Part shown: one piece after another, positions 2,954 to 6,389 of the stretch | Numbering within the stretch: the stretch's first letter is position 1 | Layout of the letters: each line of letters begins with the position of its first letter | Source of the DNA: a virus | Taxonomy: Duplodnaviria > Heunggongvirae > Uroviricota > Caudoviricetes | Reading direction: 5' to 3' (one strand) | Virus record (IMG/VR): IMGVR_UViG_2706794662_000016 | DNA: 6,389 nucleotides | Position numbers and translations under genes: made by a program | The notes under the pieces: model-generated | The model's database searches: none | Seen by the model: only the letters and a program-made list of their open reading frames with translations | What the model was told of the DNA's origin: nothing

Positions 2954-2990
2954 TCCGAGACTTTAAGAGAAATTAGAAAAACAGCTTATC

Positions 2991-3111
2991 AGACGCTCTC
3001 AATCGCATTCTAACGCAAAAAACTATCTTATTTTAGGGTGGGTAATACCACTGTACAGGCTACCCCTGAAAAAGACTGTTTAGCTCGTTACAGAGCGATT
3101 GAGGAGGTCTG
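2991..3111 (+). repeat. Bipartite repeat element, copy B: 5' arm 2991-3021, 3' arm 3078-3111, internal inverted repeat CTCAATCGC (2998-3006) / GCGATTGAG (3095-3103)
   Basis: Intergenic, with no ORF across it. Arms match copy A; the core contains palindrome CTGTACAG and a CCCCTGAAAAAG segment. Confidence 0.65.
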
Positions 3112-3131
3112 GTAAAAAGGAGATTTTAAAA

Positions 3132-3455
3132 ATGAACGAATATGAATTACAGATTTTCATTGATAGCGACACTGCTATGATGGTGCAGGCTTTCGCTGAT
3201 TCCGGTGTATCAATTGACCTTGATAAATTACTAAAGCTAATGGCTGAAAACTCAGAAGAAATTGAAGACTTTATTCAGGAAATTGAAACTGGTGAACCGC
3301 GTTTTATGTTTCCTGTTACCGACTCAAACATGAAGCGTCTTATTATCGAAGAAACGAACAAATACAGCGTTAGCCCTGAAAAATATCTCAAGGCGGCTAT
3401 AGCAATTTTGTATAGCGATAATATTCTGGTGACGGATTCGAAGGTGGTGCATTAA
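3132..3455 (+). CDS. Hypothetical acidic protein (107 aa from ATG 3132); possible RHH-like C-terminal region
   Basis: SD AAGGAG at 3117-3122, 9 nt before the ATG; the track ORF begins at an upstream TTG (3099) inside repeat B. C-terminal FMFPVTDSNMKRLIIEETNKYSVSPEKYLKAAIAIL fits a strand-helix-helix pattern by eye. Confidence 0.7.
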   Translation: MNEYELQIFIDSDTAMMVQAFADSGVSIDLDKLLKLMAENSEEIEDFIQEIETGEPRFMFPVTDSNMKRLIIEETNKYSVSPEKYLKAAIAILYSDNILVTDSKVVH

Positions 3456-3520
3456 TGGAATTGGTGATTATCTGTTTTGTATTGATTGGTATGATTGCAG
3501 GTGCATCTATTAAAGTATAA
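3455..3520 (+). CDS. Candidate micro-ORF, 21-aa hydrophobic peptide (MELVIICFVLIGMIAGASIKV)
   Basis: ATG overlaps the upstream stop (TAATG at 3453-3457); SD-like AAGGTGG at 3441-3447, 7 nt upstream. Not in the ORF track (below its length cutoff). Confidence 0.3.
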   Translation: MELVIICFVLIGMIAGASIKV

Positions 3521-3544
3521 ATGTTACCAATCTGTTAAAAGCTG

Positions 3545-3573
3545 TTGACAAACAACCTTGAGCATGACATAAT
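3545..3573 (+). promoter_or_regulatory. Sigma70-type promoter P2 (TTGACA - 17 nt - TGaCATAAT)
   Basis: Consensus -35 at 3545-3550, 17-nt spacer, extended -10 at 3565-3573. Followed by TGTATATATGG, which also follows P1. Confidence 0.6.
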
Positions 3574-3742
3574 TGTATATATGGGGGAGAGCAATTCTCT
3601 CTTATTTTTTCTTTCAATAATCCGATGGATGGATATTCTGAGTTGGAAAGGTGCAATGCTTTTCGTCCTAGCCTTTCAGGTTGGTCTGAGAGGCTATCTC
3701 AAAAAGTCTTTGTTCATTCATTATTGAATCCTTTACAGCTTT

Positions 3743-3770
3743 GCCCTAATCATGAGTTAGGGCTTTCTTT
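3743..3770 (+). terminator. Candidate intrinsic terminator (GCCCTAA - 7-nt loop - TTAGGGC, then TTTCTTT)
   Basis: Perfect 7-bp stem at 3743-3749 and 3757-3763 followed by a U-rich tract. Confidence 0.5.
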
Positions 3771-3840
3771 AAGAGTTTTTAAACAGAGCTTTTAAAGAAA
3801 GTTTTCCTGAAACTTCGTTAACGTTATAAGCAAACCTCCA

Positions 3841-3875
3841 AAGCCCTTCACAGATTATGTTTAGGGCTTTTCTTA
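3841..3875 (+). terminator. Second, weaker hairpin paralogous to the 3743-3770 hairpin (AAGCCCT ... AGGGCTT then TTCTT)
   Basis: 7-bp stem with a 15-nt loop; shares TTAGGGCTTT(T)CTT with the first hairpin. Confidence 0.3.
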
Positions 3876-3946
3876 ATAGAGCATCTTTAATAAATCGTTA
3901 AGTCATCTTCTAAGTGTATTGGCGTTGAAGGTGCTCTATTAAGAAA
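3869..3946. repeat. 15-bp perfect inverted repeat TTTCTTAATAGAGCA (3869-3883) / TGCTCTATTAAGAAA (3932-3946) with 48-nt spacer, in the leader of the 3971 gene
   Basis: Extended base by base until the first mismatch. A second interleaved inverted repeat, CTAAGTGT (3910-3917) / ACACTTAG (3952-3959), abuts the SD GAGG at 3959-3962. Confidence 0.65.
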
Positions 3947-3970
3947 TAACCACACTTAGAGGAAATTATA

Positions 3971-4681
3971 ATGACAAACGATTTATATATTAACGGTAAA
4001 AAGGTTGATAGCTTCGGAGACTGGTCACCACAGGGTGAACATCCGCTACATACTATTCAGCGTCAAGAGCATGACAAGCGCATTGAGCTTGAGCAAGAGC
4101 TAAAGATGTCACCAAAGGTAATTTCCTTTGTGTCTCCTGAGCCTCAAGAAATGCCTGATATCTGCAAAACTGAAGCACTATTTGAGCTTGAGCGTGAATA
4201 TTACCCAGCTTTAAAATCACAGCGTCTTAGACTTGATGTCGCTTACGATGCTGTTAAGAACTTCGAAGAAACCTCGAAACCTTCAGAATATGATATTGCT
4301 TACGAGATTAAGTCAAACCCGTTTATCTATTATGAAGGAAACTTTAATGATGGTTTTGGTACAGCGATTGAAGACGTTCCTAAAGTTCTTCAAAGTATCC
4401 CTGAAGGGTTCCGGTTAATTGATGTCAGACAAGCATTAAGGGGTTCTGGTCAATTTATTCTGATGACTGATAAAACAGATGAAGAGATTCTTCAGTTAGC
4501 TGAAGCTAATTTGACTAAGCATTATTCCGGTAAACTGGATAAGTTAAAGCAAAAGCTTAAAAAAGAACTTGATACTATGAAAGAACTTGTTAGTGAATAT
4601 GAGTCGCAGAAGAAGATTGCTTTGATGGCTGATATTGAGCAGTTAACGAAGATTTCTCAGAAGTATAGCAAGGCTGTTTGA
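3971..4681 (+). CDS. Hypothetical protein (236 aa)
   Basis: ATG with SD GAGG 8 nt upstream; long ORF. No family recognised. Confidence 0.8.
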   Translation: MTNDLYINGKKVDSFGDWSPQGEHPLHTIQRQEHDKRIELEQELKMSPKVISFVSPEPQEMPDICKTEALFELEREYYPALKSQRLRLDVAYDAVKNFEETSKPSEYDIAYEIKSNPFIYYEGNFNDGFGTAIEDVPKVLQSIPEGFRLIDVRQALRGSGQFILMTDKTDEEILQLAEANLTKHYSGKLDKLKQKLKKELDTMKELVSEYESQKKIALMADIEQLTKISQKYSKAV

Positions 4682-4936: not shown

Positions 4937-4979
4937 GGGGAGAGATTATCGAGTGACATCGGTAGCTCTCCCTTTTTTT
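4937..4979 (+). terminator. Intrinsic terminator (GGGGAGAG ... CTCTCCC then TTTTTTT)
   Basis: 7-bp GC-rich stem at 4938-4944 and 4966-4972 followed by seven T at 4973-4979; the 21-nt loop is long. Confidence 0.6.
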
Positions 4980-5069
4980 GTATGTGTGCTACGTGAAATC
5001 TGTAAAGCTAATACCCACACTGAAAAATAGAATTTACGTACAACACGCTTAAAGAGGTGAAAAATATGA

Positions 5070-6347
5070 ATGGCACAATTTAAAGTTGATGATTTTCTGA
5101 TTGAGTTAAGTTTTAACTCTCAGAAAGTTTTAAAAGGCTTGGAAAAAGCCGAGAAACAAACGATGCAGGTAGCATCACGAATTGAGAAGCGATTGAATAA
5201 GTCGTTTAGAGTTAATCCTACGCCTTTAAATGATTCTCTCAAACTAATGGAAAGAAATGTCGATAAAACTGTTTCCAAGATTGAGCAGCGTCTTAAAAAC
5301 ACTAGAGCGTTTAAGATTAAAACTGAAATTGAGGATACTTTAAAGCCACTTAGACAACCAAGACAGCCACGAATTAGCGGAAGCAGAGCAATCACAGCAG
5401 CTTACTCAGCGAATATGAGCAAGCTTCGTGACTTTAATCCTATGCTTGAGAAGTATTTTAAAAGCCAGTATTACAGCTTAAGCAGTAAATCCAAGACACT
5501 TGGAAACGAAACTTTTAATCGTGAGTTAGCAAAGTTAAATCAGTCTCTTCGTGAAACACTTTCTAAGTTTAACAAGACCACCAGCAAAAATAATCACAGT
5601 GAAAATGCTTCAAATAGTCTGGATGTATTAGCTACGAGTGCAATCAAAGCAGGTACAGCCATTTATAGTTTTCAGACAGCCTTAGAAGCTTACAGGCGGA
5701 TTATGGAGGTTGGTCTGAAAAAAGAAGCATCACAACGAGCGGCACAATTCGTTTTAGGTGATGAAGGTGCTAAACGAGCTACAGAATTTGTTAAGAATCT
5801 TGCTGATAGTAGTGGTGTAGACCAGATTGAAACATTAAGCAGTTTTGCTAAGTTTTCCGCTGGTGCTGGTGATATGAATGCAGACCAGAAAGAATCCTTA
5901 TTTTCTAATGTGATTGGTACATCCAGATTAATGGGGCTAAGCACCGATGAAATTAACGGGATTTTAAAAGCTTTCGAGCAGATGGCATCTAAAGGAAAGA
6001 TTCAGGCTGAAGAGCTACGCGGTCAATTAGGTGACAGAATGGCAGGTGCTTTTCAGTTATTTGCCAGAAGTCTTGGGATGACTACGGAAGAATTAGACAA
6101 GGCCATGAAAGACGGTAAGATTCTTTCTAAAGATGTTCTTCCTAAAGTATCCGCTGAAATGGGAAGGATGATTGATAAAGCTGGTGGATGGGAAAAGATT
6201 ATTAACTCTACTCAGACGCAGTTAGGCCGCTTAAGTAATTCATGGAATAATAATCTGGCCTTAATGTTCGATGGTTCACAGGAAGGTTTAACAGACTTTA
6301 CAAGGTCACTGACTAATTTACTTAATTCACTAAATAGCTGCGCTTAA
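5070..6347 (+). CDS. Tape-measure-domain protein (425 aa), lambda gpH-like N-terminal region; possibly a truncated remnant
   Basis: SD AAAGAGGTG 10 nt upstream. The motif EELRGQLGDRMAGAFQLFARSLGMTTEELDKAMKDGKILSKDVLP matches the conserved phage tape-measure core as I recall it, and the N-terminus MAQFKVDDFLIELSF resembles lambda gpH MAEPVGDLVVDLSL. Domain assignment is from memory. Confidence 0.8.
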   Translation: MAQFKVDDFLIELSFNSQKVLKGLEKAEKQTMQVASRIEKRLNKSFRVNPTPLNDSLKLMERNVDKTVSKIEQRLKNTRAFKIKTEIEDTLKPLRQPRQPRISGSRAITAAYSANMSKLRDFNPMLEKYFKSQYYSLSSKSKTLGNETFNRELAKLNQSLRETLSKFNKTTSKNNHSENASNSLDVLATSAIKAGTAIYSFQTALEAYRRIMEVGLKKEASQRAAQFVLGDEGAKRATEFVKNLADSSGVDQIETLSSFAKFSAGAGDMNADQKESLFSNVIGTSRLMGLSTDEINGILKAFEQMASKGKIQAEELRGQLGDRMAGAFQLFARSLGMTTEELDKAMKDGKILSKDVLPKVSAEMGRMIDKAGGWEKIINSTQTQLGRLSNSWNNNLALMFDGSQEGLTDFTRSLTNLLNSLNSCA

Positions 6348-6389
6348 TACCGCTACACTTTTGCCAGCCCATGTTTGCCTCCGGGGAAT

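Follow-up and report, generated by a model that had tools for sequence, protein, structure and literature searches.

Why is a gap of about 500 nucleotides (nt) that carries no annotated gene kept directly in front of the tail genes of a phage-like island, and what is made from it? The question is raised by IMG/VR virus record IMGVR_UViG_2706794662_000016 (Caudoviricetes), a stretch of 6,389 nt that was analysed at its full length and is called the window below. The window is a degraded copy of a ~13-kb phage-like integrative island, in which an early operon is followed by the unannotated gap (515 nt) and then by genes for proteins of 236 and 69 amino acids (aa), a TMP_3 tape-measure protein (TMP), a Dit-like tail protein and a large serine recombinase. 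According to an initial annotation of the sequence, a strong promoter (P2) within the gap feeds a hairpin-rich non-coding stretch, to be understood as a candidate small RNA (sRNA) of roughly 190 nt or as a multi-terminator leader of the gene that starts at position 3971. Comparison with related loci showed that an unannotated, strongly selected RNA family heads the tail module of this widespread and uncharacterised island. We tentatively favour the reading that positions 3521-3970 form a cis-acting leader of the late (tail) operon, in which transcription would stop early unless read-through is switched on, with two adjacent hairpins (H2 and H3) as the determinant. Positions are those of the window, and features lie on the + strand unless stated otherwise.

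Relatives of the gap

Consensus scans of the window reported 22 promoter-like sites (15.9 ± 3.6 in shuffled sequences, not significant) and 6 terminator-like sites (4.8 ± 2.3, no better than chance). Because such scans alone match chance, our argument rests on the comparison with relatives. About 120 related loci were gathered through four independent anchors: (i) blastn in Escherichia coli (loci L001-L006), (ii) an exact RNA 20-mer searched in viral and genome collections (L007-L024), (iii) a degenerate promoter pattern in metagenomes (L025-L125), and (iv) distant protein homologues of the 236-aa gene product (L129 and L130). The promoter and the RNA motif always occurred together, the same 13 viral contigs being found by either pattern. 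The region proved to be built from alternative modules in mosaic fashion (74 representatives remained below 95% identity), and this modular diversity makes covariation among the relatives informative.

Alignment of the whole RNA core with MAFFT and RNAalifold under-called H3 because of misalignment, and per-sequence folding with a trimmed alignment was used instead. Folding of the region, which had been proposed as a check, gave z = -3.25 for positions 3580-3775 and z = -8.5 for positions 3580-3985. Neither strand of the window matched a covariance model of Rfam 15 at E up to 1.

A conserved promoter and its upstream repeats

Promoter P2 (3545-3573) is composed of a TTGACA -35 hexamer (3545-3550), a 17-nt spacer and a CATAAT -10 hexamer (3568-3573) preceded by an extended -10 TG (3565-3566); transcription is predicted to start at ~3579-3583. 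Its description as near-consensus was borne out, since it is the top match of the window scan (11/12 plus TG) and its -35, spacer, -10 and ~25 nt upstream are almost invariant, also in loci found via the RNA motif or the protein. As it is conserved in loci that were found independently of the promoter, we take it to be real. The scan reported no other + strand promoter between 3574 and 4187, and an antisense promoter that it placed at 3993-3965 was rejected after reading L001, where it is not conserved. Between the -10 and position +1 to +2 of the predicted start, thus outside the transcript, lies an AT-rich block (TGTATATAT / TTTAATTAT), within which no hexamer with A2 and T6 is found in all families.

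Upstream of P2, phased direct repeats with N6 spacing (3521-3544; TGTTA at 3521, TGTTA at 3532 and TGTTG at 3543) are nearly invariant and are kept even in the distant relatives L129 and L130. L130, which has no H2 or H3, keeps the repeats and the -35 and has a different spacer. The phased TGTTA repeats resemble sites to which a common regulator would bind. The regions of P2 (3521-3583) and of P1 (1535-1600; repeats at ~1540), the promoter of the early operon, share TGTTA-N6-TGTTAAAA, TTGACA, the 17-nt spacer, the -10 and TGTATATAT; because the same repeat arrangement precedes both, P1 and P2 are regarded as paralogous promoters. In L005, the -10-proximal blocks of the island's own P1 and P2 showed no co-variation. 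An Ogr/Delta-type site (TGT-N12-ACA) was considered and discarded, its ACA being merely part of the -35 and the spacing shifting by 1 nt in most relatives. Facing P1 there is a divergent minus-strand promoter (1555-1526, 11/12).

A structured RNA core selected for base pairing

The transcript predicted from P2 has a hairpin, H1 (3581-3605), at or near its 5' end. It folds, and its stem covaries: two pairs occur as GC, AU or GU, and both partners have changed in 13-15 sequences. The initial annotation had described a short hairpin plus U-tract at this place, and both exist in the window copy (U-run 3605-3614). The U-run is missing from many relatives, and for this reason H1 is not a conserved terminator; judged from the sequences compared, it is a conserved 5'-proximal hairpin. 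Some relatives have an extra hairpin between the start site and H1, which shifts H1 ~30 nt downstream. H1 is followed by a variable linker (3606-3645) with (GATG)n, n being 2 in the window, for which the relatives have alternative linker families and an optional inserted hairpin.

Hairpin H2 (3646-3664) has the stem GAAAGG/CUUUUC and a 7-nt loop, UGCAAUG (3652-3658), which is identical in all 120 loci that have the promoter and at least 200 nt downstream of it. It is part of an 11-nt invariant sequence, GUGCAAUGCUU, that is single-stranded or in the loop. The arms of H2 occur in seven combinations, every one of them compatible with pairing; those of the three most distant loci are GGUAAG/CUUACU, AGUAAG/CUUGCU and GGAAG/CUUUC. 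Compensatory H2 stems are present in L071, L095 and L129, and the H2 cells of the trimmed alignment are 100% paired.

Hairpin H3 (3669-3696) is an 11-bp hairpin, UAGCCUUUCAG / CUGAGAGGCUA, with a variable loop. All 32 distinct variants fold as a hairpin of 10-13 bp. An uninterrupted run of ten pairs persists in every distinct hairpin (27/27), five of its positions alternating between GC, GU, AU and UA, and 6 of 13 pairs are changed on both sides. Together H2 and H3 span ~51 nt of regular stems, and in the trimmed alignment of 23 variants 94.3% of their cells are paired and eight pairs are changed on both sides. Their covariation (0.315) exceeds that of shuffled alignments (0.201 ± 0.016; reached in 0/500) and of slid controls (0.03-0.10). 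On the other strand the many G·U pairs would be A·C mismatches; selection therefore acts on the + strand RNA and not on the DNA or an antisense RNA.

The core ends in a conserved A/U-rich 3' tail (3697-3742), CUCAAAAAGU…UUCAUUCAUUAUUGAAUCCUUUA, with a variable (TCAT)n. The copy numbers of (GATG)n (3624-3634) and (TCAT)n (3713-3722) vary among relatives, with n up to 5; the two repeats can pair mutually via G·U, and their copy numbers do not co-vary. A long-range helix that would close the core (3613-3634 with 3709-3728, GAUG:CAUU) was abandoned, as it is predicted for one linker family only, that of the window. The GGAUG units in (GATG)n resemble CsrA-binding motifs. Optional hairpins of the form GAGG-stem-loop-stem-CCGAA (e.g., GAGGATAGTCTTCTATCCGAAG), absent from the window leader, occur in L003, L004, L007, L129 and others and are inserted at three leader positions: after the start site, before H2 and within the T2 loop (see below). 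In this they are reminiscent of a miniature RNA hairpin that is mobile or modular.

Serial terminators and a long stem before the tail genes

Downstream of the core, the two terminator-like hairpins of the initial annotation were recovered. T1 (3743-3770; hairpin 3743-3763), GCCCUAAU…GUUAGGGC, folds and is followed by UUUCUUU, and T2 (3843-3874; hairpin 3843-3867), GCCCU…AGGGC, is followed by UUUUCUU. As had been proposed, the two are paralogous, the 3' arm and tail of T2 being a direct repeat of those of T1. T2 was missed by the terminator scan because its loop exceeds 8 nt, and it does fold. Hairpins of the GCCCU…AGGGC type with U-rich tails are present in all 97 full-length leaders (one in 30, two in 67); the T1 module occurs in 67/97 and a positional equivalent of T2 in all relatives. 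Between the two terminators there is also a 16-bp hairpin (3764-3800 in the predicted fold), whose 5' arm is the T1 U-tract.

T2 is followed by a long, near-perfect stem (3869-3946) with 22-nt arms (3869-3890/3925-3946) and a free energy (ΔG) of -33.9. Helices of 22-27 bp recur in this interval, which runs from T2 to the ribosome-binding site, in three sequence families that are unrelated to one another. As its 5' arm starts in the T2 U-tract, the long stem could form only on read-through transcripts, and by its size it would probably be an RNase III substrate. The Shine-Dalgarno sequence (SD) AGAGGA and the ATG at 3971 (3958-3973) belong to the 236-aa gene, the first of the tail module; the SD is unpaired in 64/89 local folds and paired with 3834-3837 in the full-length fold.

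A third, strong terminator, T3 (4938-4979; hairpin 4938-4972), GGGGAGAG…CUCUCCC followed by U7 (ΔG about -20), sits within the same transcription unit, between the 69-aa and the tape-measure genes. Among 92 loci scanned, each of the 45 listed has a terminator of -16 to -22 kcal/mol at this position. The T3 stem sequence resembles that of H1. The H2/H3 module, which holds the two most constrained elements, the conservation of the upstream repeats and of the promoter spacer, the stem of 22-27 bp and the third terminator are elements beyond those of the initial annotation.

This arrangement is retained where the proteins around it are not. In L129 the downstream protein is 25% identical to that of the window, and the promoter, H1, H2, H3, terminator and long stem are kept; in L130 (43% identical; without H2/H3) a paralogous promoter, three terminators and a long stem are kept. 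The leader sits at a mosaic junction: downstream genes with an identity of only 23-25% are preceded by one and the same RNA core, which within E. coli alone is found ahead of two unrelated downstream gene families.

No conserved coding sequence in the leader

The absence of a credible open reading frame (ORF) downstream of P2 was likewise upheld. The 60-aa ORF starts at the TTG of the -35 hexamer, as had been remarked, and a 56-aa ORF starts in (GATG)n, the copy number of which varies in 4-nt steps. An ORF beginning at the AUG in the H2 loop (3656) has 23 aa in the window, ~5 aa in L004 (MLFAT*), 12 aa in L003 and 4-7 aa in L095 and L071, and continues through T1 in L001. The leader indels are not multiples of 3 (4-nt repeat units and indels of ~28-30 nt), and the leader ORFs had no Pfam or PHROG matches. 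As ORF lengths are not conserved, a leader peptide or small protein was rejected.

A candidate leader of the late operon

The cis-acting leader was ranked first because a consensus promoter, a structured RNA, serial terminators and promoterless tail genes together make up the layout of processive antitermination, of which serial internal terminators are a hallmark (PMC8191782). By kind, the leader is grouped with promoter-proximal terminated leaders and antitermination RNAs. According to this scheme P2, a near-consensus sigma-70 promoter, would fire without an activator and the nascent RNA would fold into H1, H2 and H3. By default, transcription would stop at T1 or T2 and yield a stable RNA, predicted to be ~190 nt or ~290 nt long, respectively, while the 236-aa, 69-aa, tape-measure and Dit-like genes would stay silent. 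With T3 also in the way, the tail genes would be expressed only from a terminator-resistant RNA polymerase. On the nascent RNA, the H2/H3 module would serve as the determinant; a highly conserved part of the host machinery, RNA polymerase or a Nus-type factor, would be a more plausible reader of it than a rapidly evolving protein of the island, as no island protein is obviously co-invariant with the H2 loop. Read-through transcripts would form the 3869-3946 stem, at which an RNase III site would set the 5' end of the mRNA. What the sequences show is the promoter, the structured RNA with the selection acting on it, the universal terminators, the lack of another predicted + strand promoter and the operon layout; actual termination, its relief and the role of H2/H3 in that relief are what we infer from them.

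The invariance of the 7-nt loop, while every flanking protein module is exchanged, also allows a more unusual reading, in which H2/H3 would be a new, self-sufficient RNA acting directly on a highly conserved host machine, either by making E. coli RNA polymerase resistant to terminators with no dedicated protein, as a second class like but unrelated to the put sites of phage HK022, or as a satellite RNA that senses or manipulates a helper phage; we consider this reading doubtful.

Several points weigh against the late-operon leader. The start at P2, the stop at T1 or T2 and the read-through are predictions. A weak promoter may be present before the TMP gene (TAGAAT, 5028-5033). Over the predicted first bases of the transcript, no -10-like pause element is evident, and this would speak against a mechanism of the lambda Q type. 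Transcripts of the upstream operon would contain H2/H3 as well, so the RNA alone would give no means of separating intended transcripts from those that arise by read-through. A switch helix, GCUUUUCG/CGAAAAGU, would be able to compete with H2; it lacks covariation support (85.8% of cells paired, one pair broken in 16/23), and we treat it as speculation only.

The search for a protein partner belongs with these points. No antiterminator was found among the neighbouring genes in Pfam, NCBIfam, PHROG and PDB, where the only significant family matches were an HNH endonuclease and the tape-measure protein. The sole universal upstream neighbour (81/82 loci) is the 107-aa gene together with a tiny hydrophobic ORF. 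The 107-aa protein is acidic, and a hint of linkage from three loci was undone by its alleles, which are only 26-32% identical in 11 RNA-positive loci; going by these sequences, it is not a clean cognate partner. The single-sequence AlphaFold2 model of this protein was unusable (predicted local distance difference test score of 43).

Alternative explanations

The main alternative, a serious one though rather unlikely, is a free-standing, trans-acting sRNA running from P2 to T1 or T2 (~190-290 nt), whose H2 loop and flanks would either titrate a protein or base-pair with an mRNA of the host or of a helper phage, the downstream genes being expressed by occasional read-through or from elsewhere. 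Such an sRNA would have its own strong promoter, intrinsic terminators with a U-tail and a conserved unpaired seed, features that are necessary and not sufficient; the 11-nt invariant sequence at the loop, an A/U-rich stretch beside a U-tailed terminator (the usual Hfq-binding layout), a 5' hairpin typical of stable RNAs and an RNA core kept while both flanking gene modules are exchanged also speak for it. The position directly before genes with no other predicted promoter suits a leader better, however, as do the conserved post-terminator stem and the third terminator, and L130 keeps the promoter and terminators but not the core. No complementary target was found within the window: on both strands CATTGCA occurs only as the antisense of the two TGCAATG copies, one of them in the H2 loop (3652) and the other ahead of P1 (1462). 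A second GTGCAATGC, at 1461, was dismissed as a shared site or target, as it is not conserved in relatives. The sRNA and the cis-acting leader are not mutually exclusive. The late promoter of Stx phages reportedly gives both a leader and an sRNA (StxS), and SviR, an sRNA of the Vibrio PLE satellite, offers a further parallel. Of the two possibilities put forward in the initial annotation, what holds for both is a non-coding, structured + strand RNA with at least one terminator before the gene in every full-length relative; its product may act as a discrete sRNA or as a cis-acting leader.

It is improbable that the leader serves mainly mRNA processing, stability and translation, with H1 and the long stem as determinants for RNase E and RNase III, H2/H3 as the binding site of a translational or stability regulator, and the terminators merely insulating the tail genes from early transcription. 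This would account for the 22-27 bp stem kept right before the ribosome-binding site in three unrelated sequence families, for H1 as a 5' hairpin and for the pairing of the SD with 3834-3837 in the full-length fold. Insulators downstream of the operon's own consensus promoter would, however, kill that promoter's transcripts too; moreover, the SD is free in most local folds, and an invariant loop ~300 nt upstream of the start codon would have no reason.

We regard a DNA-level site (a replication origin, pac/cos or recombination site), with promoter and palindromes as protein-binding DNA, as very improbable. The size of the non-coding gap, its place in a mobile element, the invariant blocks of sequence and the phased TGTTA repeats would suit it, but the stems keep pairing through G·U, that is, A·C mismatches on the other strand or in a cruciform, loop sequences and spacings vary freely, no iterons besides T1/T2 occur within the interval, and similarity to a phage genome, expected for a hijacked pac/cos, was not found. 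Finally, a small protein or leader peptide, encoded by the 60-aa or 56-aa mechanical ORF or from the H2-loop AUG, is hardly credible: the ORFs are present in the window copy and GAAAGG, 5 nt upstream of that AUG, resembles a ribosome-binding site, but their lengths vary or break in relatives, family matches are lacking and the 60-aa ORF starts inside the -35.

Comparison with known systems

The late region of phage lambda (PR'-6S-tR'-Q), including StxS of Stx phages, is a close parallel in several respects. Both systems have a constitutive, consensus-like promoter directly before structural genes, an intrinsic terminator within ~200 nt (~190-nt RNA), further terminators inside the operon, and a regulatory region at a mosaic junction. 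The promoter spacer is unusually conserved in the island, and it is the spacer that Q binds in lambda. In contrast to lambda, no Q-family match was found among the upstream proteins (Pfam, NCBIfam, PHROG, PDB), the leader has a selected RNA structure and an invariant loop, neither of which the lambda 6S region is known to need, and the element is a 13-kb island with a serine recombinase rather than a lambdoid phage.

In HK022, two stem-loops of put on the nascent RNA make RNA polymerase resistant to terminators without a protein (PMC9378689). The island leader shares with put two adjacent stem-loops downstream of a strong promoter and upstream of terminators. put acts in cis via the beta' zinc-binding domain of RNA polymerase, and the extreme RNA conservation across the mosaic family would fit a partner as conserved as this enzyme. 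The put RNA, however, is ~70 nt long with bulges and a triplex, whereas H2 and H3 consist of regular stems over ~51 nt, and the leader had no blastn match to lambdoid phages, putL or putR at E up to 10 and no Rfam match.

In the conAn system of Gram-positive conjugation, a small gene and a structured intergenic RNA of 260-600 bp head an operon with multiple terminators (PMC8191782). The island has the same architecture (a small ORFan gene, a structured gap of 515 nt and T1/T2/T3), a likeness in layout only. conAn is poorly conserved in sequence while its architecture is kept, a pattern also seen between L130 and the window. Unlike the conAn plasmids, the island is phage-like and has a Gram-negative host, and the window has a second promoter between the small gene and the RNA.

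The CI RNA of P4 and the C4 RNA of P1/P7 belong to immunity systems in which a processed leader RNA governs premature termination downstream of a constitutive promoter. They share with the island leader a satellite-like element, a constitutive promoter, an untranslated leader with terminators and a short stable RNA that derives from it. No Rfam match was obtained here (E up to 1; C4/CI are covered only if Rfam holds a model), and the window contains no repeats complementary to the conserved loop that would be equivalent to seqA/seqC.

The island and its other features

The last coding sequence before the leader is the tiny hydrophobic ORF MELVIICFVLIGMIAGASIKV (21 aa; 3455-3520), whose ATG overlaps, within TAATG, with the stop codon that ends the 107-aa gene. 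RefSeq records do not annotate this ORF, which is conserved as a hydrophobic peptide of 21-25 aa in all relatives, L129 and L130 included. Its IGMIAG codons are complementary to positions 1277-1293, where a small minus-strand membrane ORF reads IGLIAG.

In intact copies in E. coli, the island lies inside yecE or adjoins wrbA. Its early part comprises an AP2-domain gene, a Dam methylase gene and the early operon transcribed from P1, with a 185-aa or helix-turn-helix gene followed by the 92-aa, HNH, 65-aa and 107-aa genes. The island copy in the window is bounded on the left by IS3-family insertion-sequence ends (1-189) and on the right by an IS630-like element inside the TMP gene (~6315-6389), which truncates TMP to 425 aa, as compared with ~690 aa in intact copies. 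Such an island copy bounded by insertion sequences fits an insertion-sequence-rich, Shigella-type genome.

The gap sequence was found by blastn in 477 of 5426 complete E. coli genomes (~9%), always in the chromosome, and PGAP annotated nothing within it in any of the 60 E. coli records listed. Neither the gap sequence nor the 236-aa protein matched any of 50,697 phage records. With 18 clusters among 1.8 billion representatives, the family of the 236-aa protein is tiny; PGAP names the protein "transposase", a name for which domain support is absent. The tape-measure and Dit-like tail proteins are the only recognisable virion parts of the island, the other genes including those of the large serine recombinase, Dam methylase, AP2-domain protein and HNH endonuclease, and the island looks like an undescribed family of satellite-like elements. 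No description of the island or of the leader RNA was found in the literature. The island is neither SpLE2 nor Sp13 of O157 Sakai, the former being a CP4-44-like element and the latter a P2-like prophage; in strain Sakai yecE is intact and without the island.

Two further groups of repeats were noted outside the leader. Positions 2985-3115 (+) and 1356-1462 hold two copies of an element with inverted-repeat ends, AGACGCTCTCAATCGC … GCGATTGAGGAGGTCT, and variable interiors. The former, flanked by the 65-aa and the 107-aa gene, folds into a long rod (ΔG -50.7, z -6.4); the latter lies upstream of P1, within a mechanical 110-aa minus-strand ORF. The element may represent another structured RNA, or else a site of processing. 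Two tandem units of ~80 nt, ~95 nt apart, lie upstream of the early region (858-1035), with the pattern …TCTGTGAAG…TATAT…ATTACAAC…TTGAAAAATAAG…TTTTAGAA.TTACTGT, and GAGGTCGTTTAA-like motifs recur at 762-792, 829-849 and 1415-1431.

Significance of the leader

Should the gap turn out to encode no more than a terminated leader or an sRNA like lambda 6S or StxS, this would be an ordinary, well-conserved regulatory feature, and still worth annotating. If the late-operon reading is true, the gap would encode an unannotated RNA family, defined by an invariant loop, two covarying stems and serial terminators, that controls the structural genes of a widespread, uncharacterised island in Escherichia, Shigella and Citrobacter. 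It would then provide a handle on the induction of the island and on why only a tape-measure and a Dit-like tail protein are carried. To our knowledge, RNA-based control of terminator read-through is known from a handful of systems only (put, EAR and conAn), and the island leader would add a new enterobacterial case, tractable by standard E. coli genetics.

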